A DNA stretch of 64,000 nt from Naegleria gruberi (lineage: Eukaryota): assembly GCA_000004985.1 (NCBI GenBank), contig GG738883.1. The stretch is one strand, 5' to 3'. Each line of letters starts with the position of its first letter. Position 1 is the first letter of the stretch. Below, in pieces: positions 1 through 33,490 of this stretch. Position numbers and translations under genes: made by a program. The notes under the pieces are model-generated. The model did not search any database and had not been told where the DNA came from. It saw only the letters and a list, made by a program, of their open reading frames with translations.

Positions 1-294
1 GACCCAAAAACCCAAACCCAAACCCAAACCCAAACCCAAACCCAAACCCAAACCCAAACCCAAACCCAAACCCAAACCCAAACCCAAACCCAAACCCAAA
101 CCCAAACCCAAACCCAAACCCAAACCCAAACCCAAACCCAAACCCAAACCCAAACCCAAACCCAAACCCAAACCCAAACCCAAACCCAAACCCAAACCCA
201 AACCCAAACCCAAACCCAAACCCAAACCCAAACCCAAACCCAAACCCAAACCCAAACCCAAACCCAAACCCAAACCCAAACCCAAACCCAAACC
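1..294. repeat. Terminal telomeric hexamer array (CCCAAA)n, i.e. G-strand TTTGGG; about 48 near-perfect units
   Basis: Seen directly: uninterrupted cccaaa units from base 1, slightly irregular first unit (gacccaaaaaccc). C-rich strand 5' at the window edge is the orientation expected for a left chromosome end. Ends in the junction aacccacgaccaaagccagacccaacccg before an N gap. Confidence 0.9.
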
Positions 295-378
295 CACGAC
301 CAAAGCCAGACCCAACCCGNNNNNNNNNNNNNNNNNNNNNNNNNNNNNNNNNNNNNNNNNNNNNNNNNNAAAAATAGT

Positions 379-1314
379 TTATTTGCTTGGTATGCGCACT
401 ATACGACCTTCAGCAATATTGACTTGTGTAGGAGTTTGTGTATTATAAAAACCATCCAGTAATTTTATCATTGTGGTGGTACTTGTTTGATTACTCTCAA
501 AAGATGCCTTATTCTTCATAGCAGCTTCGTAAATCATATCAGCCTTTTCTGTATCACTGTCTGTAGTTTCATAGTAAATAATAGATTCATGTGAAATCTT
601 ATTAACATTCTTTTTAAGGTCATTATCGACAACAGAACGTAGCTCCGTCACCACTTTCTTTTCAGCATCCCCATGTGGTTCCTTAACCAAACCGTTTTCC
701 CTTATTTTCGAAAAAATTTTTGTACCTGTCGCTGCTGCAAGAGTCGTACCAGAAACTGCCAGAACAAATTCAGAAGCACCTGTTACAGCTACACCAAACA
801 ATTGACCCCCTGGAACGACAAAAAGCAAACCACCTACAACAAAACCAGTTGCAGCAATAATTGCCATCCATTTTGCAACATGATTGGCGTTTGCTACTGT
901 TTTCTTCGCTTCATTGTACGCTTTAATATGTTCTGCTTGGGAATCGCCAACATCGCTTAGGAAATCATCACAGTTTGTAATAAATGTTTGCATATCTCTG
1001 GAAATATCACCCAAACTGGTCAGTATTTGTCCATTACATTCGTTATTCATCTTCACTACAATTTTATATCTATTCTTATTGTAATGATCGATAATTGAAG
1101 TACAGAAACGCGTCCCAGTATCTGACAATTCTGCAGTGCATCGTGTGATAGTATAGGCAGATTTAAGAATAATAGCTAGCTTTTCTTTTTGCTCTTTGCT
1201 GAGTTTTGAGTACTTTTGCAAGCTATCAATGGCTGTGTTCATATCACCAATATTTTTAGCTGCTGTTTTAATAACAAAATCAAACGCTACACTGTACAAT
1301 TTATCCTTGTCCAT
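379..1314 (-). CDS. Hypothetical 311-aa helical protein with a central ~48-aa Gly/Ala-rich hydrophobic hairpin (alpha-helical pore-forming-toxin-like / membrane-insertion architecture)
   Basis: ATG confirmed at 1314-1312 (cat on plus). Long uninterrupted ORF. Amphipathic charged helices flank WMAIIAATGFVVGGLLFVVPGGQLFGVAVTGASEFVLAVSGTTLAAATGT. No signal peptide. Product call is inference from composition only. Confidence 0.55.
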   Translation of the reverse strand: MDKDKLYSVAFDFVIKTAAKNIGDMNTAIDSLQKYSKLSKEQKEKLAIILKSAYTITRCTAELSDTGTRFCTSIIDHYNKNRYKIVVKMNNECNGQILTSLGDISRDMQTFITNCDDFLSDVGDSQAEHIKAYNEAKKTVANANHVAKWMAIIAATGFVVGGLLFVVPGGQLFGVAVTGASEFVLAVSGTTLAAATGTKIFSKIRENGLVKEPHGDAEKKVVTELRSVVDNDLKKNVNKISHESIIYYETTDSDTEKADMIYEAAMKNKASFESNQTSTTTMIKLLDGFYNTQTPTQVNIAEGRIVRIPSK

Positions 1315-1575
1315 TTTTTTATAAATATTTTACAACAATCCAAACCTCCAAACACACAATAAAACACGCTAAAGCNNNNNNNNNNNNNNNNNNNNNNNNN
1401 NNNNNNNNNNNNNNNNNNNNNNNNNNNNNNNNNNNNNNNNNNNNNNNNNNNNNNNNNNNNNNNNNNNNNNNNNNNNNNNNNNNNNNNNNNNNNNNNNNNN
1501 NNNNNNNNNNNNNNNNNNNNNNNNNNNNNNNNNNNNNNNNNNNNNNNNNNNNNNNNNNNNNNNNNNNNNNNNNNN

Positions 1576-2050
1576 CCAAACCAAACCCAAACCCAAACCC
1601 AAACCCAAACCCAAACCCAAACCCAAACCCAAACCCAAACCCAAACCCAAACCCAAACCCAAACCCAAACCCAACCCAAACCCAAACCCAACCCAAACCC
1701 AAACCCAAACCCAAACCCAAACCCAAACCCAACCCAAACCCAAACCCAAACCCAAACCCAAACCCAAACCCAAACCCAAACCCAAACCCAAACCCAAACC
1801 CAAACCCAAACCCAAACCCAAACCCAAACCCAAACCCAAACCCAAACCCAAACCCAAACCCAAACCCAAACCCAAACCCAAACCCAAACCCAAACCCAAA
1901 CCCAAACCCAAACCCAAACCCAAACCCAAACCCAAACCCAAACCCAAACCCAAACCCAAACCCAAACCCAAACCCAAACCCAAACCCAAACCCAAACCCA
2001 AACCCAAACCCAAACCCAAACCCAAACCCAAACCCAAACCCAAACCCAAA
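1576..2050. repeat. Second (internal) telomeric (CCCAAA)n tract, same orientation as the terminal tract, with a few CCCAA variant units
   Basis: Seen directly after the N gap ending at 1575. Variants cccaacccaaa near 1670-1730. Terminates in aacccacgactaaagtcagacccaacatttt, which matches the junction at 290-319 at 26 of 28 positions. Confidence 0.9.
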
Positions 2051-4980
2051 CCCACGACTAAAGTCAGACCCAACATTTTGACTTTTATTCATCTTAATTC
2101 ATTATCTCAACAAATACTCATTATAAATCAATATATTATATATCAATATACTCCAAATTGAATATATAATCATATAATAACATAATATTACATCATTATT
2201 ATGACTTATATAAGTTAATTTCATATAATAGATTAGACAATTAGAATATCAATGAAAACATTTCAAAATCATTTCAAATCAATATATCACCTTATAAATC
2301 ATGTTGATAACAATATATATCAATTTCACATACTTTGTTATCATATCAGGGAATTAACTATTCAACTTGTCAACTGACCTATACTAACATTGAAGATAGA
2401 AATCTGTACCACTACAATTCACTTCCAATACATCTATACATGATAATTAAATATATCTATATGATTCAGAAGATCATCCATATCATACATGGTACATGGC
2501 TTATCCACTTGATACCTACAGGGATGTGACAATGACATCTACTATACAGATCATCATATAATTGATACAGTACCTTGCTAATGATGAATAAACACCACTG
2601 TATCAGTCTCATGACAATTTGAACTCATTCAACATGTCAGGAGTGTAATCATGAGAATTATGAATATCAAGAAAATGAAATCATATTAATTTTAAAATCT
2701 TTCAATTATAATATCATATATAGATCAATTTAACATGGTATATCAATAATTGGTATTGAATTTCATATCANNNNNNNNNNNNNNNNNNNNNNNNNNNNNN
2801 NNNNNNNNNNNNNNNNNNNNNNNNNNNNNNNNNNNNNNNNNNNNNNNNNNNNNNNNNNNNNNNNNNNNNNNNNNNNNNNNNNNNNNNNNNNNNNNNNNNN
2901 NNNNNNNNNNNNNNNNNNNNNNNNNNNNNNNNNNNNNNNNNNNNNNNNNNNNNNNNNNNNNNNNNNNNNNNNNNNNNNNNNNNNNNNNNNNNNNNNNNNN
3001 NNNNNNNNNNNNNNNNNNNNNNNNNNNNNNNNNNNNNNNNNNNNNNNNNNNNNNNNNNNNNNNNNNNNNNNNNNNNNNNNNNNNNNNNNNNNNNNNNNNN
3101 NNNNNNNNNNNNNNNNNNNNNNNNNNNNNNNNNNNNNNNNNNNNNNNNNNNNNNNNNNNNNNNNNNNNNNNNNNNNNNNNNNNNNNNNNNNNNNNNNNNN
3201 NNNNNNNNNNNNNNNNNNNNNNNNNNNNNNNNNNNNNNNNNNNNNNNNNNNNNNNNNNNNNNNNNNNNNNNNNNNNNNNNNNNNNNNNNNNNNNNNNNNN
3301 NNNNNNNNNNNNNNNNNNNNNNNNNNNNNNNNNNNNNNNNNNNNNNNNNNNNNNNNNNNNNNNNNNNNNNNNNNNNNNNNNNNNNNNNNNNNNNNNNNNN
3401 NNNNNNNNNNNNNNNNNNNNNNNNNNNNNNNNNNNNNNNNNNNNNNNNNNNNNNNNNNNNNNNNNNNNNNNNNNNNNNNNNNNNNNNNNNNNNNNNNNNN
3501 NNNNNNNNNNNNNNNNNNNNNNNNNNNNNNNNNNNNNNNNNNNNNNNNNNNNNNNNNNNNNNNNNNNNNNNNNNNNNNNNNNNNNNNNNNNNNNNNNNNN
3601 NNNNNNNNNNNNNNNNNNNNNNNNNNNNNNNNNNNNNNNNNNNNNNNNNNNNNNNNNNNNNNNNNNNNNNNNNNNNNNNNNNNNNNNNNNNNNNNNNNNN
3701 NNNNNNNNNNNNNNNNNNNNNNNNNNNNNNNNNNNNNNNNNNNNNNNNNNNNNNNNNNNNNNNNNNNNNNNNNNNNNNNNNNNNNNNNNNNNNNNNNNNN
3801 NNNNNNNNNNNNNNNNNNNNNNNNNNNNNNNNNNNNNNNNNNNNNNNNNNNNNNNNNNNNNNNNNNNNNNNNNNNNNNNNNNNNNNNNNNNNNNNNNNNN
3901 NNNNNNNNNNNNNNNNNNNNNNNNNNNNNNNNNNNNNNNNNNNNNNNNNNNNNNNNNNNNNNNNNNNNNNNNNNNNNNNNNNNNNNNNNNNNNNNNNNNN
4001 NNNNNTATATATATGATAAATTCAATTATTTCAATTATATATCATAAATCATGATAATTAGACATGTATCAATCAGTGGAATTAAGTCATGTAAGATATT
4101 CATCCTTCAATAACCAATATTGTCATTTTCACACAAGTTGACTTCCTACAGTCTGAATATGGATCCAATAATGATTATTTCAATTATATATGATTATATT
4201 TGACATTTACTACAATATCTATGAGTTAATATAAATGGGAGAGTATTTCCATAGTATGGCTCAATATCTTGGTCAATTAAGGTAGAACGAGTACAGTATA
4301 CTAAGGATATCATATGTTATACTTCCAACAATTCTACAAGGTAGATATCATCATAATACATCATATATATGAGATTGGTGATGATTCTAATAACATTCAT
4401 ATAATAGTACAATAAATGTTGAAAAGTTAATTTTTAGACATGTTGTAGTTTATTTAATATACCGATTCAACAAGATTAATTCATAATATCGTCTATTCAT
4501 ATATATATCTACAATATATCAAAAGTTTCATTCTGGCCCAACTTTGAAATTTTCAACTTTGTCAGACCCAAGGTAGGTTCAACCCATGGGGTCACTTTAG
4601 GACTCAATTATCTCGGGAACGGCGAATTAAAAAAATTAGTATTTTCTATCATTTCTTCCAAAACTCATATAGATTGATATTTGAGTGAATCATAACCCGG
4701 AACGTTCTCGTCGCAGAGATAATAGATATACTAGGAATTTTTGAGTTGACCATTTTTGATTATCTCAATAACTACGGGGAGTTTTTTCACGTGTATTACA
4801 GAATAGATATATTAATGTATTTAATAATACATATATAAGAACTGGATAGCCAATATTAGCCGTTCGTTTTATGTGATTAGGTTTTCGCCATACCCAAACC
4901 CAAACCCAACCATTAATCATTTAGCTGAATTGGGTCTTGCGTAGGTTTATTTTTTCTTAATATATATATATATTTGTAGA

Positions 4981-5556
4981 ATGAAAATAGCAACGTATTA
5001 TAGAACACTAGAAGAACTACTTGAGGACGAAAAACTTATTACTCAAAACATTCTCTTGACATGCTTATTCATTTGGCATCCAGATAATTTCGATCTTGAC
5101 TTTGCCCGAAAACGACTGTCAAGAGACTCCAAAAGTCTTCAAAATCATCACTACACTGCAATTGGTGGCTCTTTTAATAGAATGGTCAAACCTATCAGCA
5201 TCAAAAACTTCAAAGCTTTTTTAAAAGTTGTTCTTGAATTGGGTAATGAATATTTCGAACTTTATTCCGAAACATTTAGTAATGTTGAACCATTCGATCC
5301 AAGCTACGGTTATTGGTGGGCCAGCCAAAGTACTTCTGATCTTTTAAATTTATACAACAATCCGATTAGACCAATTCCGAACCACCCTAATGATTTTACT
5401 TGCATGTCAAAATATCGAACTTTAACTATTTTACCACAAATAATCAATAGTACAGAAGGATTATTTGAAGTATTATTCAAATTAATGAACAAATATTCCA
5501 CCGAAAACCTGATGTTTATTAAGGTTGATGTTAACATCTACTTGCGGATTTTTAAG
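4981..5556 (+). CDS. Hypothetical protein, exon 1 (ATG at 4981; gtaagt donor at 5557)
   Basis: ATG verified. ORF is in phase up to aag|gtaagtg at 5554-5563. Downstream read-through in the ORF track (RIFKVSVPCS...) is intron. Confidence 0.5.
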
Positions 5557-5601
5557 GTAAGTGTTCCTTGTTCAAATATATATATATATTTGCAAAAATA
5601 G

Positions 5602-5865
5602 ATTCTATATGTACTAGAAGAACTAAATGTTCTTCCTGAATGGAACAAAAAACTTGTAGTTATTCATGGCCCTTGGCATACTTTTAAAATGTGTTGTATT
5701 ATTGTTTGGAGATTGTATGCTGAGAACTTCTTGTTAAGAATTGTTGCAAGAATTTATCCAAAAGTTAATGCATATTTTAAACAATCACTACCTCTACAAT
5801 ATCTTGTTGATATTATCAACATCATAACTCTTGCGTTTAGATATGTGAATATTGAAATTGACTAA
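5602..5865 (+). CDS. Hypothetical protein, exon 2 (acceptor aaaaatag at 5594-5601; stop taa 5863-5865)
   Basis: Hand translation in phase 0 from the donor gives ILYVLEELNVLPEWNKKLVVIHGPWHTFKMCCIIVWRLYAENFLLRIVARIYPKVNAYFKQSLPLQYLVDIINIITLAFRYVNIEID then stop. No recognisable family. Confidence 0.45.
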   Translation: MLYVLEELNVLPEWNKKLVVIHGPWHTFKMCCIIVWRLYAENFLLRIVARIYPKVNAYFKQSLPLQYLVDIINIITLAFRYVNIEID

Positions 5866-5999
5866 AGTACCGAGTTAGGAAAGAACCTTCATGCACTACT
5901 AGAACTCTACCTTCCAGCTTTAAGAGATTTTTATTGTGCTCTCAGAACTAACGATTACTCAGTGTACAACAAATGCAAAGACGTACTTTTGTATTTGTT

Positions 6000-6048
6000 A
6001 TATTTCTCCAAAAGAAACAATAAAACAATCGTTGATAAACCAATGGGT
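6000..6048. repeat. Retroelement short repeat B2 (49 bp, identical to 6666-6714), about 490 bp beyond A2
   Basis: Exact 49-bp identity found by reading both regions. Its placement suggests the element boundary is near 5997-6000. Confidence 0.7.
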
Positions 6049-6536
6049 AGAAGCTCACTCAACATATTCTTCATCCAAAGGATGAGGTATGTTGCTCAGA
6101 AATGCTGCCTTTTAGGTCATTGACTTTATTCAGCATTGTCCCGAGTTAATAAAGTTGTTTACAAAATCGAGATTGAAGTAGAACAACTCCCCTATAAAAA
6201 ACCTGCATTGCAGGAAAAAATCGGTAAAAACTCCAATCCATTAAAGTTTTAAAAGGTGAATTGCTTGTAAAAAAATGCCTGGTAATTTCCATCAGAAATA
6301 TTTTTTGAAAAAATAAATCTGGCTTACTTTACGAGCATATTTCGAATTATTCAAATGATGTTAGTTAGAAATAAAAATTATTGTATCACAAGGTGATACT
6401 AATCCTGCATCCATAGAAGGATCACTTACCAAGATCGATCTAAAAGACAAAGAGGAAAAACACTCAAGGAGTGAAATACTAATTGAAGGAATTCAAGGAA
6501 TTCCTGAAGTTTCAAATAAGGGAACGGGTGGGTGGG

Positions 6537-6666
6537 TCGCCTTGCTTGGTGTTTGAACCATTTCAATATACTTAATTTTTTTGAGCATAAAATTATTTAT
6601 CAACTCAATTTTATTGTTTACAATTTGTCGAAATACTAACGTTACATCGTTCCTCGCAACTCTACA
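6537..6666. repeat. Retroelement direct repeat A2, immediately abutting repeat B1 (6666-6714)
   Basis: Same 130-bp unit as 10385-10514. Followed without gap by atatttctccaaaagaaacaataaaacaatcgttgataaaccaatgggt, which is repeated at 6000-6048. Confidence 0.85.
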
Positions 6667-6713
6667 TATTTCTCCAAAAGAAACAATAAAACAATCGTTG
6701 ATAAACCAATGGG

Positions 6714-7750
6714 TTAGTCCAGAGAAAATAAGGTGTCTGTGAAATTCTTGCCAGCAAGACCCTCAGATCGTAGATAAGGAAATAAACTGTTGGTTTTCTT
6801 ATGTCTTGCACCAACCATGAGATCTGAAGTAGAAACACCTTTTCTAAGTCCTTCTGTGATGGCTCCAATTCTAATGCTGTGCCCAGAAACTCTCACATCT
6901 TGGTCAACCATACCCACCGCATTCTTGAGTATCTTAGAAATATCATTTGAATCAAGGAATTTGTTGTTTTCGTAGGAAAACAAAGGAGAATCGTCATCTT
7001 TAAATTCACGAACCAAATCCATATACGAATTTAGTAGGGTTATTGGGCAAAGACTTGGATTCTTTGTATTCTTGTCAATAGTAATTGGTTTTTCAATAAG
7101 GAAGAAATCAGTTTTGTGACCACTGAGGTCAATTTTGATTTTTCCATTCTTGAGAACCTTGATATAGGACCATTTTAAGCGCGCAACCTCACCAGGTCTT
7201 GCAAATAGTCTGAAACCAACCACTAGAATAGCAGAAGTGAGTCGAAAAGTGAAATTGTCCACTTTGTCTTTGCACTTCACATAATCAGTCAAATGTTTGA
7301 CTGTAATTGGATCTCTTTGAAGAGAAACTTTATCCGAGAGTGTATAAAGTTTCAGTACACCTTTTTTAACCTTAGAGTAGGAGGCAGAGATGGTAATGGG
7401 TTTGCCATCAAGGTTAGCAAAGAATTGAATTGCTGCTTGCACAGTTTTTGCTTTGTATCCTTGAATATTTATCAAGAGGTATGAGATGTAATATTCAATA
7501 GCTATAGGATCATCAATGGTGAGATCAAACACATTGATAAACCAGAGAAAACCACCATAAATTCTATTATAAGTTCTGAATGTTTTCTCAGCTATTGATG
7601 AAAGGATACTAAGATCCCTTATTGCTTGAACAACTTGCCATGCACTTGAACAACCAGGAAATTGGAAGTCTCGAACTTGTCTTGCAACTCTGACAAGGGC
7701 GTTATTATAAGCATCTTTCGGGAAACAGGTATTATCCTTTCTGATATCTT
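6714..7750 (-). CDS. Retroelement tyrosine recombinase (approximate span; C-terminal third of the 6714-8603 ORF)
   Basis: C-terminal region carries the YR catalytic pattern: ...ARPGEVARL... (Arg), ...HSIRIGAITEG... (H-x-x-R), ...SLFPYLRS (Tyr). The upstream two thirds of this ORF is an R/S-rich alternate frame of the RNase H region and is probably not translated in this frame. The 5' boundary is uncertain. Confidence 0.6.
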
Positions 7751-8599
7751 TAGCAAGACTGGAAACCATATCGAAGAGGGCCAGTCTGGAACTACAAATG
7801 TCGCTTTCGCTTCTGATTTTATGCAATGAACTAGAGCTTGAGATATCAGACCCAGAGGAGGAACACAATAACTCATCAGATTTTGTTCCCATGGATTCAA
7901 GAATGTGTCGTTCTCTATCCATGAGTTGAATTGAATTGTTGTGGTTGATTCCGATGTCGCGAATCTGTCCACATGGTGCTCTCCAAATTCTGTCTGAACT
8001 AGATGCAGTAGTTCTTGAGATGATTTCCATTCTGTTAAGCGACTCAGTCTGTCTGCTAGATTGTTCTCCTTTGAGGGAATGTAAATCACCTTTGAAATCC
8101 ACCATTTTCTTCTCATCAAGATCTTGTAGAGGTCTCTGGCGATTTGAGAGAGTTCTTCTATGACTCCGTAACCTCTCCTTATATAGGAAATTGCTGTAAC
8201 ATTGTCGCCTCTGATTTCGAATGCTTGTCCAGGACCATAAAGGTTTAACCGATCTGCTTGTGTGAAGAAAATGAGGAGTGTTTTTAACTCTTTCACATTG
8301 ATGTGTTCTGAGGAAGTGAATCTTCCAATTGTAATGGTTGACTCTGCGTGAATTCCATAGCCTGTTGGGCAGGCATCTGAATTCACTCGAATTGGGTTCG
8401 TTGAATTCAGTTCGAAGGGAATTCCACTGTTTTTCTGAATCAGATCTTTCAAAATATTTAGATCCTTCGCTGCACCTCTGAATATTCTCATTGATGCGTG
8501 CCAAGATTTGTCGTTTACTACTTTCACCATATCCTTCCGAAGACGAGCAAGAAAGGGAGCAAAGTAATGGTTTGCAGTACCCTGTATTCGTTGTTCCAA
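7619..8599 (-). CDS. Retroelement pol, RNase H plus conserved post-RNase-H domain typical of DIRS-group elements
   Basis: RNase H catalytic pattern DACPTGYG ... NVKELK ... IRGDNVTAISY ... ENNLADRLSR, then NPWEQNLMSYCVPPLGLISQALVHCI...FVVPDWPSSIWFPVLL. Confidence 0.65.
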   Translation of the reverse strand: MEQRIQGTANHYFAPFLARLRKDMVKVVNDKSWHASMRIFRGAAKDLNILKDLIQKNSGIPFELNSTNPIRVNSDACPTGYGIHAESTITIGRFTSSEHINVKELKTLLIFFTQADRLNLYGPGQAFEIRGDNVTAISYIRRGYGVIEELSQIARDLYKILMRRKWWISKVIYIPSKENNLADRLSRLTEWKSSQELLHLVQTEFGEHHVDRFATSESTTTIQFNSWIENDTFLNPWEQNLMSYCVPPLGLISQALVHCIKSEAKATFVVPDWPSSIWFPVLLKISERIIPVSRKMLIITPLSELQDKFETSNFLVVQVHGKLFKQ

Positions 8600-8860
8600 C
8601 CAAATTTTTTTAGAGTCGAGCCAATTTTATAAATATTTTAATATTATTTATTCTTCTGATGATATTTCGTCGCCACTTTATTCATCACTTCCACTTTGTG
8701 GATTCTGATGCATCATCTTCCTCATATTCTGATCCGCTGGTAGTATCGTCTTGGTAAATTCTTGGAAAGCTTTTGGAGTTTATGGTTTGATGGTTGGTAT
8801 TTCATCATCAACAGGAAGAAGATTCCAGTCAAAGAAACTTCCTGATGATGGGTTGTTGTA

Positions 8861-9514
8861 TTAATTTTCTAGCCAACTGCCATGTTGTTCAGTTGCTTCC
8901 AAATACCAGCTTGTGATTNNNNNNNNNNNNNNNNNNNNNNNNNNNNNNNNNNNNNNNNNNNNNNNNNNGGAAGTAACCTTCTTCAGGTCTATCTTTGTTG
9001 CCCACATTCCCTTCTGAACAAATTTCAAACATCTTTGAATGTTGTCCATCTTGAAGGAACTGTCCTTTATTCCTAAATTGACCTTCCTTAGGTCTAGAAT
9101 AAAGCGAAATTGATCCGAACCCTTCTTGGGTACAATGTTTATTGGGTTCAATATTGTTGAACTGTTTCCAATCTCTATTACATTGGAACTCAGCATCTCT
9201 TGGATTTCCTGATCCATCCAAGAGGTTTCCTTTGGAGAGAAATTCTTCCTTTGTTTGAATTCTTTCCAAAGGGTGGGATTTGAGTAGATTGGGACTCCAT
9301 TTCGAATCCAATCCACTATAAATGGGTTGAAGTTGTAACTCTCCCACTGAGGTACAAACTTGTTGAGACGGCAACCTACCAAGTCAGAGGTCTTGTTTGA
9401 AAGCTCCTCCACCATTGTTATTGTACTTTGGCTTGGAATCTCCTGACTTTTGAAAAGAGGAACCACTCTTGTTGTAATTGTTGAATGGCTTTGAATAGCT
9501 GTTAGGGATGCCAC
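8861..9514 (-). CDS. Retroelement pol, reverse-transcriptase N-terminal region (interrupted by N gap 8919-8968)
   Basis: Motif PKKGSDQFRFILDLRKVN (RT domain 1-2, F..DLR..N) seen in the translation. The gap explains the truncation. Confidence 0.6.
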   Translation of the reverse strand: MASLTAIQSHSTITTRVVPLFKSQEIPSQSTITMVEELSNKTSDLVGCRLNKFVPQWESYNFNPFIVDWIRNGVPIYSNPTLWKEFKQRKNFSPKETSWMDQEIQEMLSSNVIEIGNSSTILNPINIVPKKGSDQFRFILDLRKVNLGIKDSSFKMDNIQRCLKFVQKGMWATKIDLKKVTSXXXXXXXXXXXXXXXXXITSWYLEATEQHGSWLEN

Positions 9515-10409
9515 CTTGATGAGAGGACGGTTTTTGAAACTTTTCTTTCATCTTTAGAGGTTTTTGGATCTTGCTGGTAATGGCATGCTTTACTACAGAT
9601 TTCTCTCTCTTCTTTTGGCGAGCTTTTTCTGTTATATCAGCAAACGTGTTGCTTTGGATGAAGGGTTGAATAAATTGGTTCGCAACATCAAAGTTACTTT
9701 CGAATAAACCTTCTTCTAAAAAGATTTTCTCAACCTCAGAGAGAAGAAACACCAACTCAGTGATTTCAATGATGTTGGTTACATTTAATGGATGGCTCAG
9801 AGCAAACTGAAGTAATTTAGACTTCAAATGTAACATTTCCATCATCTTTTGCAAGCCTTTGGATTGAATTTCTTGCAGACGAGGATAGTTACGAGAGTTG
9901 TGAATGACAGATTCAAATCGAGCCATCAAAACTTGAACTCTATTCAACAACGCCTCATTGGAAGAGTAATGACGAAGTGTTTTGGCTGAGACAAAACTTA
10001 AGACATCTCCATCGGATAGTCTATCACCAACTTCGTAGTTACGTCTAATCTCCTTGATAGTAGTTAGACCCCAATGTTTACCAGTGAAATCCTCATCAGC
10101 GGATTCCTCATCAGGGTCTTCATCAAGTTGATTAGCTTGTTGCAGAACAGGAGGAACAGCTTCGAGATGCTTTATTCTCTCACCCAAAGAAGTGATGGCG
10201 TTGAGAATAGCATCAAGGTTCTTTTCAGAACCAGCTTGGTTGTTATCCAAGGTTTTGGATGTTGGGTCAACCACAGAGGGGAGTGAAGCTGAGCTACCAT
10301 TGTCAGTTACTGGGATGTAACCTGACTTGTAGGTAGAAGTTGAGGATTTGCTTGCTGAAACTCTTTGACGAATGTTGGAAATATTCGCCTTGCTTGGTGT
10401 TTGAACCAT
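9384..10409 (-). CDS. Retroelement ORF1, gag-like (coiled-coil-rich; C-terminal basic/Gly-rich tail)
   Basis: First ATG in the ORF is cat at 10407-10409 (MVQTPSKANISN...), inside repeat A1 and 150 nt downstream of the non-ATG start reported by the ORF track. Protein is helical with a KSGDSKPKYNNNGGGAFKQDL tail. Confidence 0.55.
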   Translation of the reverse strand: MVQTPSKANISNIRQRVSASKSSTSTYKSGYIPVTDNGSSASLPSVVDPTSKTLDNNQAGSEKNLDAILNAITSLGERIKHLEAVPPVLQQANQLDEDPDEESADEDFTGKHWGLTTIKEIRRNYEVGDRLSDGDVLSFVSAKTLRHYSSNEALLNRVQVLMARFESVIHNSRNYPRLQEIQSKGLQKMMEMLHLKSKLLQFALSHPLNVTNIIEITELVFLLSEVEKIFLEEGLFESNFDVANQFIQPFIQSNTFADITEKARQKKREKSVVKHAITSKIQKPLKMKEKFQKPSSHQGGIPNSYSKPFNNYNKSGSSFQKSGDSKPKYNNNGGGAFKQDL

Positions 10410-10514
10410 TTCAATATACTTAATTTTTTTGAGCATAAAATTATTTATCAACTCAATTTTATTGTTTACAATTTGTCGAAATACTAACGTTGCATCGTTC
10501 CTCGCAACTCTACA
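10385..10514. repeat. Retroelement terminal direct repeat A1 (about 130 bp); contains the gag ATG
   Basis: Near-identical to 6537-6666 (tcgccttgcttggtgtttgaaccatttcaatatacttaatttttttgagcataaaattatttatcaactcaattttattgtttacaatttgtcgaaatactaacgt[t/g][a/g]catcgttcctcgcaactctaca). Confidence 0.85.
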
Positions 10515-10568
10515 ATAACTAGCAAACATACATTGTACACAAATGCAGAGTTGTTTCAAACGTTAAAT

Positions 10569-25164: not shown

Positions 25165-28023
25165 TTATTGAACAACAAAAGTCATCTTTTGAACATTACC
25201 AGTTGCAGAACTCTTCATCTTTTCAATAACTTCTTCCTTAATCTTTTCTCTTTCCAATACTTGATAAGAAATGATACCAAAGAATTTACCTAAAGTATTT
25301 CCGTTACCAGTCAAGATACCCTTATGCATGGCCTTGATGTTATCACCAGCATAGGTGGCGACAATATATTTGAAGAGAGTAATTCCTCCACTTTCCTTAC
25401 ATCTTACTCTGAAAATAATGTGGAACATGCTGTCATCAGTCAACTCTGGCATGAATTCCTTGAAACGAAGTCCCTTCTTGTAGAAGAGCATCTTGTTATT
25501 AATCTTTCCATCCTTATAATAGAGAACAATGTAGCTGGACTTCTTTTGACTGTGATTATGGAGCTTTTCATATTCTGAGAGGTCTGTATCACCATCATCA
25601 ACATCCATATCCAAATTATCCATTGAATCATCAAATCCAAGTAATTCTTCACCTCTCAACATGTCAAATACTGAAAGGACATTGTAATCGACGTTAATTC
25701 CTTCAAATGATTGATAACGAGTACCAGATTCATCTTCTGTTGCAGTTGACTTGGAAAGGAGATCTTGCATGACCTTACTCATTTGAGAAAGTTCTGCATT
25801 TTTCTTTTCCTCTTCCTCTTTAGCTCTTCTACGTTCTTCCTCTTCCAATTCTGCCTTTCTTCTACGTTCTTCTTCCTCAATTTGGGCTTTTCTCTTTCTT
25901 TCGTCTTCTTCGAGTTGAGCTTTTCTTTTACGTTCGTCTTCTTCTAATTGTGCCTTTCTCTTTCTTTCATCTTCCTCTAATTGGGCTTTTCTCAAACGAT
26001 CTTCTTCTTCCTTCTTCTTCCTGTCTTCTTCATCCTTCTTACGTCTGGCTTCCTCTTCTTGTCTTTTCTTTTCTTCTTGTTCTCTCCTCATCTTTTCTTC
26101 CAATTCTCTACGTTTACGTTCTTCTTCTTCCTTCTTGGCCAATTCAAGTTGAGAATTGTTGAGAGAGTTAATGAGATTTTGAATTTGATCTTCTAAATGT
26201 TTGACCTTTTCCTTGAGTTCATTAACTTGCTTTTCATTTTGATCTTTGGCAAGTGACAAATCAGTGAGGTTCTTCTTTTCCAATTCAGAAAACTTTTCAG
26301 TAATTTGCTTTTTCAATTCTTGATGAGAATATCTCAACTTGTCTTCAATAGTTGAGCAAACAGTACATTGAACCATTAATTCTTGATCTCCTGAATTGAC
26401 AACTGAATTATTGACATCCTTATTCTTTGGTTCAGTTGGAACAATCCAATAAGCAGAATCCTCAAAGGTCTTTTCAGGACTCATCACAAAAAGCCACTTG
26501 TTATAGACGAATCCATGCAAGAAACCACCAGCAATTGATGTCACAACTGTAATACAGAGAGCACAGATTTGGAATCCCCACAAATTAGTATACTTGGATC
26601 CAAACATTGTCTTGGTATCATCGCCATAGATTTTTACCTTTGCTGCATTGTCAATGGCATTACCTGTGGCTACAATGCTAACCAAACCACCATACACACC
26701 AATCAATAAATGGGTTGAGAATACATTGGAAGTGTCGTAAATTCTCAAATGTTTGATGAGTGGTTGTAAGACACACAAACCCAATCCAGTCAATGCACCA
26801 GCAACAAGACCAATGGTTAAGGCACCTCCTGGTGAAACAATGACTGATTGAACGGAGGCCATTGAGATACCACCAACGATGGCTCCTCTCTGTAAATCTC
26901 TCATTGAGAATCTTCCTCTCAGCAAACGCATAACCACGAAATGGATAACACAACTTGCAGCCATAGCAATGAATGTGGTCATTTGAGCTCTGTATTGATA
27001 TTGAGCATTGGAAATCAAAGCAGCATTGAAAGATGGCATCAACACCCACAATAAAACAGTTCCAATAATTGCAATCATGTCAGATGCCTTACTATGATGA
27101 TTTTCAAATACCTTACTTTGGAAAACCGATGGTTTGTACAATGACCAAGAAGCTGCCAATCCATAACAAGCACCAAATACATGAATAAACATGGAACCAC
27201 CATAATCAATAGCTCCCAATACCAAAATAATACAGAAATAATTCACACTATAAATGAAAACCTCTGAAAATGCCATTAAAATCAATTGAACTGGACTTGT
27301 TTTTCCAATCACACAACTTGTACTAATCAAAACAGCAAAAGCTCCATAAAAACCATGAACCAACCACTTCATATCCAAATAAATAACCGTATTAAATACA
27401 GTTTCATTCTTGGCATCTTTCAAAGTTGCATATTCCATAATCTTTGACCAAAATCCTTGAGCAATTATTGAGAATTGAAAACTCAAAGCTGCCAATAAAA
27501 TTGTCATTCCAATCGTGTGATATTGAGCATTCTTAATGCAACTCATTGAAAGTCCTAATCCTAATAATGTCATCATGGCAACATCAATCAAATTCTTGTA
27601 ATCACCAATTTGTGAGCTAGTGGAAGATGTTGGAAATTCAAAGAAAATCCAAAACATGCTCACATAGAATAATTCGAATAGAACAAGATAGAAAACGAAT
27701 GAAAATTTTTCAATATCGTATTCTCTACTAGCTATCCATTCGGTAACTTTTTCCTTCACGGTCTTTTCTTCTTGTGGTTTCTTCTCCAAATCAAAATTAA
27801 AATTACTACTCGATTCTAATTGAATAGTCGATTCTCCTCCACCTTCTTTCTTCTTCATAGACGCTGTCAACCCTTTAATTTTCTTCACACCATAATAAAT
27901 AAAACATCCGATCAAGTAAATAAAGTAAACGATTAGAAAAACGCTGGAAATTACAATTCCAGAAATGTAACGGTTCTTGTTGGTGGCAAGAGTCTCGGCG
28001 ATTGTGCTGTTGGTAGAGTTCAT
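25165..28023 (-). CDS. Rh50-type (Rhesus/Amt superfamily) ammonium transporter fused to a long E/K/R-rich helical segment and a C-terminal globular domain (952 aa)
   Basis: ATG verified. 11-12 TM. Rh-family signature DYGGSMFIHVFGACYGLAASW. Residues ~600-720 are KEEEERKRRELEEKMRREQEEKKRQEEEARRKKDEEDRKKKEEEDRLRKAQLEEDERKRKAQLEEDERKRKAQLEEDERKRKAQIEEEERRRKAELEEEERRR (encoded by 33-bp tandem repeats around 25800-26000), then a ~200-aa tail. Confidence 0.85.
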   Translation of the reverse strand: MNSTNSTIAETLATNKNRYISGIVISSVFLIVYFIYLIGCFIYYGVKKIKGLTASMKKKEGGGESTIQLESSSNFNFDLEKKPQEEKTVKEKVTEWIASREYDIEKFSFVFYLVLFELFYVSMFWIFFEFPTSSTSSQIGDYKNLIDVAMMTLLGLGLSMSCIKNAQYHTIGMTILLAALSFQFSIIAQGFWSKIMEYATLKDAKNETVFNTVIYLDMKWLVHGFYGAFAVLISTSCVIGKTSPVQLILMAFSEVFIYSVNYFCIILVLGAIDYGGSMFIHVFGACYGLAASWSLYKPSVFQSKVFENHHSKASDMIAIIGTVLLWVLMPSFNAALISNAQYQYRAQMTTFIAMAASCVIHFVVMRLLRGRFSMRDLQRGAIVGGISMASVQSVIVSPGGALTIGLVAGALTGLGLCVLQPLIKHLRIYDTSNVFSTHLLIGVYGGLVSIVATGNAIDNAAKVKIYGDDTKTMFGSKYTNLWGFQICALCITVVTSIAGGFLHGFVYNKWLFVMSPEKTFEDSAYWIVPTEPKNKDVNNSVVNSGDQELMVQCTVCSTIEDKLRYSHQELKKQITEKFSELEKKNLTDLSLAKDQNEKQVNELKEKVKHLEDQIQNLINSLNNSQLELAKKEEEERKRRELEEKMRREQEEKKRQEEEARRKKDEEDRKKKEEEDRLRKAQLEEDERKRKAQLEEDERKRKAQLEEDERKRKAQIEEEERRRKAELEEEERRRAKEEEEKKNAELSQMSKVMQDLLSKSTATEDESGTRYQSFEGINVDYNVLSVFDMLRGEELLGFDDSMDNLDMDVDDGDTDLSEYEKLHNHSQKKSSYIVLYYKDGKINNKMLFYKKGLRFKEFMPELTDDSMFHIIFRVRCKESGGITLFKYIVATYAGDNIKAMHKGILTGNGNTLGKFFGIISYQVLEREKIKEEVIEKMKSSATGNVQKMTFVVQ

Positions 28024-28434: not shown

Positions 28435-29499
28435 TTATTTATCATCACTTGTTGGTTGTTCGTGGAAAATTTGTTCCATAAATGAATTGCAATCACTTTT
28501 GAGAGTTGCACAATCGATGAATCCTAGAGAATTAGTTTTGGCATTTGGTCCATTTTGAGAGAAATCATGGAGGTTGACATTGAGGCAACTTTGCATGTGA
28601 TCGATACAGAAACAGGACGAAACTGGGATGAATAAACTTTGCCATTGCCTTACGCATTGTTCTGTAGTTTGAGTTTCTAATAAGCATTCGATTAAATCAT
28701 CATGTTCCTCATCGTAGAATGTATGAATAAGTGTGGAAAGTCTGGTTTGATTTTTCCTTTTAGATAATTTCTTGTCGTATTTCAAACTTTCAAATCCTAA
28801 TGCTACATCATCCGATTCTTCATTTTCTGGTTTTTCTTCCTTCTTAGTTTCCAATAATTGAGAAGAAACATTCTCACTTGCTTCTCTATTTTGCATATTT
28901 TTCATTTCATCTTGCTTAATTCTATTCATAATTGTCAATTCTCTATAAAAGGTATTATACATTGAATTGGGTGTGTTCCATTCCCTAAATGATTTGGCAA
29001 ATTTTGAGAAACGAGCCATCGTATTGACATCATTTCTGAAACATTTCAAAACTTTGGTGTGAATTGCCTTAAACATTGAAAATTTAGCTGCCTTTGCACG
29101 CATCAATTTCGATTGAGTTAACATTAATTGAATTTCCTCAGCAGTTGGCAAGCACGACTGTTCCTCAGGTTTAATCTTTTCAGCTAATTGTTGTGTAACT
29201 GCAGCTAGTGTTGTTGGTTCTTCAACATTGACATGATTGGCAAGTGTCATTTTGGAAATAATTGTTTCAGTTTCATGTGAATTTCTCTTTTTTCGGAATC
29301 CTTGTTCTCTCGATTGTTCATCTTCCAAAGCTCGAAACGTTTCCGAAAGTTCACATGATTTCTTCAATGCCAACAAGACATCCTCAGGTACTTGTGATTG
29401 TAATATTAAATTATGATTTAAATACTTGTTGTTACATTGATAAACTGCTGATAGATAGGAAATTAATAATTTCTTAGATAAATTATCACTAGATGACAT
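28435..29499 (-). CDS. Hypothetical protein (354 aa), no recognised domain
   Basis: ATG verified. Long intact ORF with A-rich context. Confidence 0.5.
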   Translation of the reverse strand: MSSSDNLSKKLLISYLSAVYQCNNKYLNHNLILQSQVPEDVLLALKKSCELSETFRALEDEQSREQGFRKKRNSHETETIISKMTLANHVNVEEPTTLAAVTQQLAEKIKPEEQSCLPTAEEIQLMLTQSKLMRAKAAKFSMFKAIHTKVLKCFRNDVNTMARFSKFAKSFREWNTPNSMYNTFYRELTIMNRIKQDEMKNMQNREASENVSSQLLETKKEEKPENEESDDVALGFESLKYDKKLSKRKNQTRLSTLIHTFYDEEHDDLIECLLETQTTEQCVRQWQSLFIPVSSCFCIDHMQSCLNVNLHDFSQNGPNAKTNSLGFIDCATLKSDCNSFMEQIFHEQPTSDDK

Positions 29500-29823
29500 T
29501 CTATATGATGATGATGTTTAATATTTAGATGATGTTGATTACTATTGTGTTGTTGATGGAAATTATTTGCTATTAAAAATTAAATATTGATGCGGAGAAA
29601 TAATGATTATATTCAATCAATACTATCAATGATAACAATATTATTCCGATGGTTAAACTCTGTGATGATGCAACTAGGTTTCACACACTCAAAGAGTATT
29701 ATTGATTATTTGATGTTGTCGTAATTTTTTCCGAATGCTTTTTGATTGAATTACGGCTAAACATAAACACTTCCAAATAAACTTAGTTGGTTGAAACGAT
29801 TGATAACAACTATTTTGAAGACT

Positions 29824-29897
29824 AGAAATGGAAGCAGCGATAGATCAGTTGGTTAGATCGTAAGCCTAACACGCTTAAGGTCGCGGGTTCAAGCCCC
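29824..29897 (+). tRNA. tRNA-Val (anticodon AAC)
   Basis: Folded by hand: acceptor gcagcga/tcgctgt (G1:U72 wobble), D stem gatc/gatc with agttggtta loop, anticodon stem taagc/gctta, loop ctAACac, T arm gcggg-ttcaagc-cccgc. A and B boxes are present. The anticodon arm (gcctaacacgc) is identical to the animal Val-AAC arm. Confidence 0.85.
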
Positions 29898-30071
29898 GCT
29901 CGCTGTAAACTTATGCATTTTTACAAAAAGTACACAACATTATAAATATTAAATTACATTTTTGAATTAATCTAACAATAACTGATGTAATTTCCATTTG
30001 TGCAAATTTATTTTTTTTAAAATTTGATTTTGATTTAAATACATTTGAGGATCCTCTGCAATTTTTCAACA

Positions 30072-31056
30072 CTAAATCTTAATTACTGAACTGGTCATTC
30101 TTCTCGATAACACCTGCATAGCAACCTCAGAAGCTGGATCAATACTTTCCTCAGATTTTGGAATTTCCGATATTCCCAATTGAAGTTGTTTCTCCACAAG
30201 TTTCTTATAAACTCCTCCTTCTCTATTCATCAATTCATTATGAGAACCTGCCTCTGTAACCTCTCCATCAACCATTACAACAATCTTATCACAATTTCTA
30301 ATGGTGGACAAACGATGAGCAACACAGATTGTGGTCCTTCCTTTCATGAGTGTATCCAATGCTGATTGGACTAAACCTTCCGATTCTGTATCGAGGGCAC
30401 TGGTTGCTTCATCTAATAGTAATACTAATGGATTTTGTAAAACAGCACGTGCAATGGCAATTCTTTGCTTTTGTCCACCACTTAGTGAAATACCCTTTTC
30501 TCCTAATTTGGTATTATAGCCATCTGGTAGTTCCATAATGAAATGATGACAGTTGGCAGTTCTAGCAGCTCTTTCAATATCTTCCAAAGTGACATTTTCA
30601 ATACCAACAGCATAGGCAATATTTTCCTTAATGGAACAACTAAAAAGCACTGGTTCCTGAGTTACAATTCCCAAGGCATGCTTATGAAGCCAAATAGGAT
30701 CAATTTCCTTAACATCTACACCATCCAATAATATATTTCCTCCTTTAGTTTCGTAAAATCTTTCTAATAATGAAACGATTGTTGTTTTACCAGAACCTGA
30801 TGGACCAACGAGTGCAACTGAAGTTCCTGCTTTGATATCGAGTGAGAACTTTTCTAAAACTCGAACATCACTTCTGGATGGATAGACGAAAGAAATATTT
30901 TCAAATTTGATTGATCCTTTTAAGGAAGGAATTGTTTTTCCTCCCTTAAATGGAATTTCTGGAGTTCTCTTCATGACACGAAGTAAATTTTTCATGGAAA
31001 CGAAAGCTCCAATGATATTTGGGAGAACTATTCCTGCCTCAGTCATGCCAAAGACA
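30072..31056 (-). CDS. ABCB-type half transporter, C-terminal exon (nucleotide-binding domain)
   Basis: Walker A GPSGSGKTT, signature LSGGQKQRIAIARAV, Walker B LLLDEATSALD, H-loop AHRLST. Acceptor ttttcaaag precedes VFGMTEAGIV... on the minus strand. Confidence 0.85.
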
Positions 31057-31557
31057 CTTTGAAAAGATTACAAAAATTTAAAGTTTCGAATAATGAAAAC
31101 TTACGAATAAACAATGGTACCAAATGTTTTCATTAATTCACCAACTGTTAATTTGCCATCTGCAACCATATGTCCTCTAAAATTATAAGAAAATACAAGA
31201 GTTTAAGTTACTTTCCATTTTTGAAAAATATTAGAAACTTACCCATACTAGGAAAATGTCAACAAAATTAAAAAATCAATATTTGAAATACTTACCCACC
31301 ATGCAAGAGCATTTGTTCCCCACATGACTGCTGAGAAAGATCCCCAAGCAGCTCCATCAAAACACGATCTGATAAATCCAAAAAATTGTGTCCTCTTGAA
31401 ATTACCAGCAAATCTTTCTTGTTCCTTTTCTATTTGGTTTCAAAATTCATAATCAATCGAAACACATGTGAATAGTTATAAAACATGACATGTGGCAGTG
31501 AAATTTCATATTAATTGAACTAGTCAACTGAAATTTTTCAAAATACTCAAAACATAC

Positions 31558-32632
31558 CTTCACAACCCATGCTTCTCACAGTTCTAATACTTGAAATTAC
31601 TTCACTGGCAATGATTGAACTCTGTTCATTGACAGTATTTGCCTTTCCATCAAAAATCTGAACAAACTTTGCTAAAATTCCATAACCAACAATCATGAGC
31701 GGACTTGTGGAAATCATAATCAAGGTCAATTCCCAAGTTGTGGCAAAAGCCAAAGCAACGCCAAGAATGAATTGAGTGACGTTTTGTACAAAGCTAGCCA
31801 GCTTGTAGGAGAGTGCATCCTGAATTTTGTAAATGTCTTCACTCAGTGGAAGTGTCAATTGACCTGTTTGTTTAATGTCAAAAAATCCAATTTCTTGTTT
31901 TGTGAGCGAATTAAAATAGGCTCTTCTTAGTGAGATTCCAATACGTTGTACAGCCCATCCCAAGAAGAAATAAGTCATCAAACTGGCGATACCTGAGCAA
32001 CCAGCAACAATTGCAAAATTGATGGCAACTCGATTAACATTCGTCTTGATTTCGTCTGAAGTAGGATAAACTCCATTCTTTGCCTGGAATACATTCAACA
32101 TATCTCCAAGAACGTATTGAAAAACCATTGGAATAACACCTCTACCAGCAGCTCCTATTAATCCAAAAAAGATTAGTATGAAATTCCAACCAATTATTCT
32201 AAAGATGGTGAAATACGAAAGTACGCCAAGTTTAGGTTCTCGAGTGTCGACTATTTTTCGTTCAGTTTCGATTATTTCCTTCTTATTTGGCTTGGTTTCG
32301 GTTGTTGTGGAGGAAGATGTTGCTGTTGCTGGAGTTTTCTTGAAAGGATTCAAGCTGAATCGTCTAGAATCGTTAGACGAAACACTTGTTGTAGGCGAAA
32401 GTTCAGCATCAGATGATTGTACACTGAGAGAAGAACTTTTACGACCTACAACTGGTAATTCATTAGAAAGCTCTGGATTATTCTTGAATAAATGTTGTTG
32501 GGCAGCATTAACATAATTAGGAGAAGTCGAAACTAAACTACTAGACGAATTTTGTTGTTGATAATCTACAGTTCCAAGATTGTTGGATTGAGTTGTTGCA
32601 TCAGAGTTTCCTCTATTTCTGAAGGAAGGCAT
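31558..32632 (-). CDS. ABCB-type half transporter, first exon (N-terminal S/T/N-rich tail plus transmembrane domain)
   Basis: ATG verified at 32632. Six-TM ABC exporter fold motifs. Donor gaag|gtatgt at 31557. At least one small internal exon (…ERFAGNFKRTQFFGFIRSCFDGAAWGSFSAVMWGTNALAWW…) lies in 31260-31430 between this exon and the NBD exon. Confidence 0.8.
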
Positions 32633-33490
32633 TTTGTAATGTTACGGTTAATAATTGGGATGATACCAAATACAAACGAAACGTGTGAACTATTCGAAAT
32701 CTGTTCACCACAGTGCTAAAACAAGCGGTTCACGGGAGAAATGGTAATATACTATAATACAATAATATCCTGTGATGAAATATTAGTACTATTCAATGAT
32801 AAACAGTTATTGGAAACTATTAGAATCTTTCCTCTACTAGTACACCTTTGATGAGATCTGCAGGTATTTGTTTTTTATGCTTGATTGCTTGAATCGCAGA
32901 CAAAAATCACAAACAACAACAGGGAAGTGCGATTTAAAGCATCATGCAAATCTTGTGCTGGAATGCAGACGAAATCAGCAGAAAGTCGATAAAGAAAGAC
33001 CATCGTCGTCTTTATTTTTATTGTAACAGGACGCTCACAACTTCTATCAAGGATTACGCAACCATTTTTGGATCTGGTACTGAGCGGCTTGAGGCCCATA
33101 GTTCGAAAGGAAAATTTGTAGTGGAAATCACATGAAATGGAAAATAGATGAATGATTTGTTTGAGGTACAAGTGGTGTTTATGGAAAGATAACAAATATC
33201 ATGGCATTGGTACAATTGGTTCTTTGGAAAGAATGTGAAAAAGTATTCTAATTGTAAGAAGAAACTATTCACTGTAAATTGATACAATATTAGATACAAG
33301 TATTAGATTGATGTGATTAATAGATGATTCAATGTTTTTGCATGTTAATTCCCAAATCGTTACAAAATGAATAATTTAAATAAGTCGAAAATTAAAAAAT
33401 TGATTATTGAAGAGTCCATTCGAACAATTAACCAAACCGTTAAACACTCTCATTTGGAAATTGGCAAAATATTGAAAAAGGTAAAGATAT

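Follow-up and report, generated by a model that had tools for sequence, protein, structure and literature searches.

Extension of a chromosome end by a segment that carries nested cargo is a type of event known in yeasts and other eukaryotes. In budding yeast, Y' elements are acquired through internal TG1-3 tracts; they are present in multiple copies on many ends, and the internal tracts are short and have been sequenced through. Telomere-specific retroelements are another arrangement in which a short coding segment has repeats on both sides. A similar picture can arise in genome assembly when draft scaffolders line up the allelic contigs of a heterozygous diploid in tandem. Naegleria is described as being mainly a heterozygous diploid, and heterozygosity has been reported for N. 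gruberi (PMC9928731). TTTGGG was earlier proposed as the telomere repeat of this organism from genome data that include chromosome ends (Fulneckova et al. 2013, PMC3622300).

Here we analyse a stretch of 64 kb (the window) that lies at the end of an N. gruberi draft scaffold of 371 kb, where two telomere arrays with a common junction bracket a single gene. The origin of the window is given by that gene, which is 100% identical to XP_002674598.1. As described below, the gene is tied to the two telomeres by nothing other than runs of N, and its bracketing is most likely a scaffolding artefact.

Results

Two arrays, a common junction and a gene between them had been described in an earlier note on this DNA, and all were recovered in place by TRF, pattern search and open reading frame analysis. 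The outer array (1-292, + strand), which sits at the scaffold terminus, consists of GACCCAAAAA (1-10) followed by 47 perfect CCCAAA units (11-292). The inner array (1576-2050, + strand) has 75 CCCAAA units and five that are one base short (CCAAA at 1576 and 1581; CCCAA at 1670, 1687 and 1728). The earlier description of the arrays as perfect is thus accurate for 11-292 but not for the first ten bases or for the inner array. TRF reports 6-nt arrays at 8-315 (51.3 copies, 97% matches) and at 1576-2054 (80.5 copies, 98% matches, 1% indels). In the assembly the arrays are at least 282 bp (outer) and at least 475 bp (inner) long, the contig of the inner one beginning within the repeat.

Both arrays carry CCCAAA on the + strand at the left end, as do all CCCAAA matches in the window, so that the G-rich strand points with its 3' end towards the chromosome end, the orientation of a left-hand telomere. 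A tandem short repeat of this polarity, present here in 47 and 75 canonical units, is what telomerase-type telomeres have. The arrays support TTTGGG as the telomere repeat of this genome, as the earlier note held; the same had been published for N. gruberi (PMC3622300). The inner array is the sole one that is sequenced continuously into the chromosome; on its distal side lies a run of 200 N, so that it is not sequenced into unique DNA in both directions.

Each array passes into four degenerate telomere hexamers that remain in register with it: CCCACG, ACCAAA, GCCAGA and CCCAAC in junction J1 (293-316, + strand) and CCCACG, ACTAAA, GTCAGA and CCCAAC in junction J2 (2051-2074, + strand). The two are identical at 22 of 24 positions and are homologous by descent, since non-telomeric bases are common to them at the same positions. 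The junction pattern CCCACGACYAAAGYCAGACCCAAC has exactly two matches in the 64 kb, namely these two, and none would be expected by chance even with three mismatches. After J1 comes CCG, at the end of which (319) the contig stops, and after J2 comes ATT, so that three of the three following bases are different. The junctions had been said to precede a divergence; the sequences indeed differ there, but over a comparison of 3 nt. J2 is the sole junction that is sequenced continuously into chromosomal DNA, being contiguous with non-coding, AT-rich subtelomeric DNA (2075-2770, 24% GC). The differences between the junctions (2 of 24, and all three that follow) fit alleles or paralogous ends better than a single read-through structure. 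Collapsed multi-copy sequence typically leaves a stub that breaks off at the point of divergence between the copies, and we infer that J1 is common to, or collapsed from, other chromosome ends.

We also searched for the junction and the repeat elsewhere. The junction had no match among JGI metagenome contigs (exact-pattern scan) or among GTDB genome contigs. With (CCCAAA)6 as the pattern, 120 metagenome loci were recovered, of which at least 27 have a terminal array in telomere orientation; none had the Naegleria junction, and none was similar to the window or to the gene. A metagenome contig in ENA, from a strain with 99.1% identity, matches 29.4-33.5 kb of the window, not the scaffold end.

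The bracketed gene, NAEGRDRAFT_80559 (XP_002674598.1; 379-1314, - strand), lies on a contig of 1,006 bp (370-1375, 36% GC). It is a single-exon gene for a product of 311 aa with a hydrophobic, Gly/Ala-rich central segment of about 58 aa. It is intact, as the earlier note had stated. Its codon usage is host-like (in-frame LLR of +0.19, negative in the other five frames), and its GC3 of 0.28 resembles that of neighbouring genes. Searches with the product against Pfam, NCBIfam and PDB sequences gave nothing significant, no reverse transcriptase, endonuclease or recombinase domain was found in it, and its AlphaFold single-sequence model has a pLDDT of 37. An exhaustive HMMER search returned the protein itself and nothing else, and neither a paralogue nor a homologue was present among 5.8 billion clustered and 1.84 billion representative proteins. 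By these sequence comparisons NAEGRDRAFT_80559 is a single-copy orphan; it is therefore neither part of a repeated subtelomeric unit, found on several ends, nor a mobile-element gene. BLAST found no significant similarity between the gene contig and the remainder of the window, the AT-rich subtelomere included.

We examined how these pieces are joined. Three of the four runs of N in the 64-kb window fall within the first 4 kb (50 N at 320-369, 200 N at 1376-1575 and 1,235 N at 2771-4005, the last one following the AT-rich subtelomeric DNA), the fourth being 50 N at 8919-8968. The pieces delimited by the first three are 319, 1,006 and 1,195 bp long. The outer array with J1 is thus a separate contig of 319 bp, J1 is cut off from the gene contig by a scaffold gap (320-369), and a second gap (1376-1575) separates the gene contig from the inner array. 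Every join between the outer stub, the gene contig and the inner-array contig is a run of N, with no continuity at the level of reads. The stub halts 27 nt past its array, at a stated distance of 50 nt from the gene contig, which in turn halts 61 nt upstream of the gene's ATG, at a stated distance of 200 nt from the inner array; neither small contig runs into its supposed neighbour. Sanger reads of about 700 nt that cross such points would normally merge the adjoining pieces. We found no overlap between contig ends in any order or orientation, nor one that would put the gene contig into the 1,235-N gap or beside J1 or J2.

Perfect telomere repeats are absent from both ends of the gene contig. 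At its right end there is a weak telomere-like remnant, CCAAACCTCCAAACACAC. Against a probe of telomere plus junction this end is marginal, with 3 of 4,033 control windows scoring at least as highly, two of which overlap each other and lie over the tract described next. As a relic of the junction it failed with the 24-nt junction probe alone (56 of 4,033 control windows score at least as highly; not significant).

Besides the arrays, the window has a single other telomere-like match, an interstitial tract of 18 nt (CCCAAACCCAAACCCAAC, 4893-4910, + strand) that is oriented like the arrays. It hints that telomere repeats have been internalised at the present end at least once before. A junction fragment of 11 nt lies at 4561-4571.

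Further in, at about 6.0-10.6 kb, is a tyrosine-recombinase, DIRS-like retroelement. False mate-pair links through near-identical copies of it are unsupported, its closest annotated paralogues having 85% and 53% protein identity.

Discussion

We consider it probable that the window holds one real chromosome end together with a pair of small contigs, belonging to the second allele of this end or to a different end, that the scaffolder stacked distally. On this reading the window would open at a genuine N. gruberi chromosome end in a draft assembly of a heterozygous diploid, and the physically sequenced end would be the one that leads without a gap from the inner array (at least 475 bp) through J2 into AT-rich subtelomeric DNA. 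The outer stub and the gene contig would be independent contigs placed by clone mate-pair distances alone, derived either from the other allele or from another end with the ancestral degenerate junction in common. The scaffolder would have set these misplaced contigs distal to the true telomere, and the bracketing would be an artefact of linearisation. We infer that the N-run joins of these two contigs are wrong; the gene contig, at 1,006 bp, could conceivably fit the gap of 1,235 N. What speaks for this is that the parts are joined by gaps only (320-369 and 1376-1575), with no overlapping ends, and among the three options of the earlier note, which had left the choice between them open, mis-scaffolding emerges as the best supported: all links are runs of N, and neither small contig reaches into the adjacent piece. 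Fragmentation alone is no proof of misassembly, since sparse coverage is to be expected over the last insert length before a real chromosome end. Against an artefact, the order of the contigs presumably reflects some mate-pair links available to the scaffolder, the co-oriented tract at 4893-4910 shows that telomere sequence has been made internal here at least once before, and the remnant CCAAACCTCCAAACACAC on the right end of the gene contig weakly points the same way.

It is possible, though doubtful, that the nested telomere is real, the end having been extended past an older telomere, on one or both homologues, by a segment bearing the orphan gene and a telomere of its own. In that case the inner array would represent a long interstitial telomeric sequence. 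One conceivable route is break-induced replication or telomere capture, in which a shortened telomere may have primed on TTTGGG repeats inside another end, by analogy with the gain of Y' elements in budding yeast. The two arrays are co-oriented, both as left-end telomeres, and the junctions are homologous yet non-identical, as expected after a duplication. The 18-nt tract and the 11-nt fragment at 4561-4571 suggest that internalisation has occurred in earlier rounds, the gene contig bears its weak remnant, and some clone-pair support must underlie the scaffold order. However, the gene contig is not sequenced into an array on either side, the first two contigs fail to bridge stated gaps of 50 and 200 nt, and the inner array is bordered distally by the 200-N run. 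Capture, moreover, needs a donor copy of the gene, whereas the annotated proteome and every database searched contain a single one, and an old telomere would rarely be expected to keep at least 475 bp of near-perfect repeats. The earlier suggestion of an extension past an older telomere thus retains one hint, the tract at 4893-4910, and ranks below mis-scaffolding. We regard it as unlikely that the scaffold is correct as it stands; if it were, the end would have a long, nearly undegraded internal array and, distal to it, a single-copy, lineage-restricted orphan and a second telomere, which together with the relic at 4893-4910 would amount to repeated terminal extension, by telomere capture or break-induced replication, at one end.

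It is highly improbable that the end carries a tandemly duplicated subtelomeric unit of array and junction, with or without the cargo. The 24-nt junction does recur, co-oriented, behind each array, but this common part is fully accounted for by the four degenerate hexamers in register, and the sequences after it differ at once (CCG and ATT). The gene is not repeated, and its contig and the AT-rich subtelomere have no similarity. These observations, and the unlikeness of the gene contig to the rest of the window, disfavour the tandem unit of junction and telomere that the earlier note had listed.

The idea that a mobile element targeted to telomeres carries the gene and was inserted in telomere repeats, suggested by the likeness of its flanking repeats to those of telomere-specific retroelements and by the retroelement nearby, is effectively refuted by a single-copy gene without an enzymatic domain, since a second copy was found nowhere, the product has neither a mobility-enzyme domain nor a significant Pfam, NCBIfam or PDB match, the codon usage is that of the host, and J1, being homologous to J2, is not an element terminus.

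If the preferred reading of stacked contigs is correct, the first ~1.5 kb of the scaffold is unreliable, including the placement of NAEGRDRAFT_80559, which is of modest practical value. The proximal structure of one Naegleria telomere is in any case recorded: four degenerate units in register, then AT-rich DNA. If the nested structure were true, it would be a first example of gene-bearing nested telomeres in Heterolobosea and a handle on subtelomere growth, and it would reveal a route by which a young gene can come to lie within ~100 bp of a heterolobosean telomere. Nanopore reads of N. gruberi have been published (PMC12695648).

Among known systems, the candidate TTTGGG telomere of N. gruberi (PMC3622300) shares with this locus the organism, the hexamer and the position at a scaffold end in telomere orientation. 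The main text of that paper names the repeat alone, without junctions or subtelomeres; the degenerate in-register units of J1 and J2, the arrays measuring 282 and 475 bp or more in the assembly and the tract at 4893-4910 are additions to it. The budding-yeast order X-(TG1-3)-Y'-(TG1-3) is alike in having a coding segment between co-oriented telomere tracts at a chromosome end; in contrast to Y', the cargo here is a single-copy orphan, and neither of its flanks is sequenced into a tract. The 18-nt tract has the features of interstitial telomeric sequences left by healing or double-strand break repair, as it is short, internal and in telomere orientation. The inner array would belong to the same class if the scaffold is right; however, with at least 475 bp and 75 of 80 units perfect it would be exceptionally long and fresh for that class, and its internal position is putative. 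Finally, although no allelic counterpart of the gene contig is to be seen in the window, the locus resembles the stacked allelic or paralogous contigs of heterozygous drafts, with which it shares small contigs separated by runs of N, a near-identical short sequence that occurs twice and co-oriented, and a heterozygous organism.

Two telomere arrays with a common junction

Two CCCAAA hexamer arrays lie on the plus strand within the first 2.1 kb of the window, each followed by the same junction and with a gene between them, as the earlier note had described (TRF, pattern search and ORF call). TRF places the outer array at 8–315 (51.3 copies) and the inner array at 1576–2054 (80.5 copies). The outer one opens with an irregular GACCCAAAAA, followed by 47 perfect units at 11–292; the description of both arrays as perfect holds for this stretch and fails for the inner array, which has 75 canonical units and five that are one base short (CCAAA twice where the array begins, and CCCAA at 1670, 1687 and 1728). 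The C-rich strand runs 5′ to 3′ away from the left end, as expected of a telomere. The assignment of TTTGGG as the telomere hexamer of this genome agrees with this orientation and with a published proposal, where it is a candidate N. gruberi telomere repeat identified from the genome sequence (Fulneckova et al. 2013, PMC3622300), and is thus not new. Uncultured eukaryotes besides Naegleria share the hexamer: a (CCCAAA)6 scan turned up many metagenome contigs that end in such arrays, oriented as telomeres, so the repeat is in use beyond this genus. None of these contigs carries the Naegleria junction or similarity to the window. JAESGV01 contigs (loci L007, L029, L031, L042, L054, L077 and L078) and others have correctly oriented (TTTGGG)n ends, and such metagenome ends switch abruptly into unique, often AT-rich DNA.

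Both arrays run into CCCACGAC[C/T]AAAG[C/T]CAGACCCAAC, at 293–316 (J1) and 2051–2074 (J2). No third copy of this 24-mer occurs in the 64-kb window with up to three mismatches allowed, and none is expected there by chance; nor did the junction pattern match any JGI metagenome contig or GTDB genome contig. In array register, J1 reads CCCACG ACCAAA GCCAGA CCCAAC and J2 reads CCCACG ACTAAA GTCAGA CCCAAC. Each consists of four degenerate hexamers of the telomere type that keep the phase of its array, which is the usual look of a telomere's proximal edge. The non-telomeric bases stand at identical positions in J1 and J2, so the two go back to one ancestral sequence and are not products of independent decay; at the two differences, the telomere-consensus C stands in J1 and T in J2. 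Past CCCAAC, J1 reads CCG, and J2 reads ATTTTG and continues into 696 bp of non-coding DNA (24% GC). The divergence claimed to follow the junctions is therefore present (CCG versus ATT), with the J1 side contributing three bases only, because its contig ends at 319.

Placement of the contigs at the scaffold end

The N runs measure 50 (320–369), 200 (1376–1575), 1,235 (2771–4005) and 50 (8919–8968, the sole other gap in the 64 kb). Only the inner array is sequenced without a break into chromosomal DNA, as contig 1576–2770. The outer piece is a separate 319-bp contig (array plus 27 nt), and so is the gene contig (1,006 bp, 370–1375), which ends 9 nt past the stop codon on one side and, on the other, 61 nt before the ATG is reached. 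Neither end of the gene contig has a perfect telomere repeat. Whatever order and orientation are tried, no two contig ends overlap, and neither DNA nor protein comparison finds significant similarity between the gene contig and the remainder of the window. As the contigs are separate and non-overlapping, the bracketing of the gene by arrays exists through N runs alone, that is, through clone-pair distance estimates. The three small contigs would all fall inside a single plasmid-insert length from the scaffold end, and mates further in presumably gave their order relative to one another. In Sanger assemblies, a read across J1 is expected to continue for several hundred bases and merge with a contig 50 nt away, and reads that start in the gene contig's right half are expected to reach an array 200 nt away. 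Both missing merges are awkward for a correct scaffold.

Among mis-scaffolding, extension of the end by telomere capture or healing, and tandem duplication, between which the earlier note did not choose, we favour the first. The window probably contains one real chromosome end, with two small contigs laid distal to the true telomere by the scaffolder. The real end would pass from telomere through four degenerate units into AT-rich subtelomere. The 319-bp contig would be telomere and junction of the second allele or of a different end, a collapsed or allelic sequence that breaks off where its copies begin to differ; the 1-kb single-gene contig would come from elsewhere, with thin coverage and an uncertain position. 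With such origins the missing merges would be natural. Naegleria is described as mainly a heterozygous diploid, and heterozygosity is reported for N. gruberi (PMC9928731), so allelic contigs could realistically have been stacked in error.

That the end was truly extended beyond an older telomere is possible, though we regard it as rather unlikely. The telomere-like tract CCCAAACCCAAACCCAAC at 4893–4910 (plus strand), the sole other CCCAAACCCAAA match (≤1 mismatch) in 64 kb, has the orientation of the terminal arrays, lies ~2.8 kb inside the inner array and 70 nt upstream of an ORF start (ATG at 4981), and may have been left behind by an older telomere or by telomerase-mediated repair. The 11-nt GTCAGACCCAA, part of J2, recurs at 4561–4571 (plus strand), perhaps by chance or perhaps as one more fragment of a junction; nearby, GGCCCAACTTTGA is similar to GACCCAACATTTTGA at the J2 end. 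Against a telomere-plus-junction probe, the gene contig's right end (CCAAACCTCCAAACACAC...CACGCTAAAGC) has a score that just 3 of 4,033 control windows equal, and two of these three overlap each other across the 4893–4910 tract; with only the junction as probe, its score is unremarkable (56 of 4,033 as good). By these hints, there appears to have been at least one occasion on which telomere repeats turned internal at this end, which keeps a nested structure in play. Against it, capture requires a donor copy of the gene, and none is visible; reads would also have failed to merge across the stated 50- and 200-nt gaps. Tandem duplication of a subtelomeric unit is disfavoured by the tests run here and very improbable. 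Least credible of all is a telomere-targeted mobile element, disfavoured by the tests and by the single copy of the gene.

What is useful here is a caution on this scaffold end and one characterised telomere junction from Naegleria. For N. gruberi, a nanopore re-assembly has been published (PMC12695648).

Other features of the window

A DIRS/PAT-like tyrosine-recombinase retroelement occupies ~6000–10560 (minus strand), with Phage_integrase (E 3.5e-5) and Dam-like methyltransferase (E 3.6e-6) domains, a gag-like ORF, an RT-like motif recognized by eye in ORF 8861–9514, a 50-N gap inside it, and split direct repeats (6537–6666 = 10385–10514, 99%; 6000–6048 = 6666–6714, 100%). Its N. gruberi paralogues, on other scaffolds, share only 85% and 53% protein identity, so it is unlikely to have caused false mate-pair links.

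An apparently unannotated gene lies at 4981–5870 (plus strand): ORF 4981–5556, a candidate 45-nt GTAAGT...TAG intron (5557–5601) and an in-frame continuation, the last two assigned by eye. Its sole relative in the databases is a 178-aa protein (P0009) of 44% identity on a 1.8-kb contig. The ENA metagenome contig L001 (ERZ929261, PRJEB11402) covers 29443–33456 only and matches the window at 99.1% identity across 3.4 kb, so that sample contains a close N. gruberi strain. ORF 30072–31046 (ABC_tran) has its protein-collection match from ENA only, with no identical NCBI N. gruberi protein. The sole Rfam or ARAGORN match in the window is a tRNA-Val (AAC) at 29834–29907 (plus strand). Imperfect 33-nt (11-codon) tandem repeats at 25792–26010 (minus strand), which also show a 99-nt higher-order period, lie inside a 952-aa ORF (25165–28023) that probably encodes a charged, coiled-coil-like repeat protein.

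The gene between the arrays

The single intact gene reported between the arrays is confirmed as a 311-codon ORF on the minus strand (379–1314). Its product is identical over its full length (100%) to EFC41854.1/XP_002674598.1, ‘predicted protein [Naegleria gruberi]’ (NAEGRDRAFT_80559), and several further window ORFs exactly match N. gruberi proteins of the same 371,401-bp contig, so the window represents the left end of an N. gruberi draft-genome scaffold. Only the annotated frame shows host-like codon usage, and GC3 matches that of neighbouring genes; by these measures it is a genuine Naegleria coding sequence. A word-indexed search of 5.8 billion clustered proteins and an exhaustive HMMER search of 1.84 billion representatives each returned only the protein itself, and nothing significant was found in Pfam, NCBIfam or PDB sequences. 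On these searches NAEGRDRAFT_80559 is a strict orphan and single-copy, and a single copy means that it is not an element of the repeated, Y′-like subtelomeric kind and is not cargo carried by a telomere-targeted mobile element. A single-sequence AlphaFold model was unusable (pLDDT 37). The protein has a central Gly/Ala-rich hydrophobic stretch of ~58 residues (148–205), and its N- and C-terminal parts look helical. This predicted layout of helical ends around a hydrophobic centre recalls membrane-inserting helical proteins.
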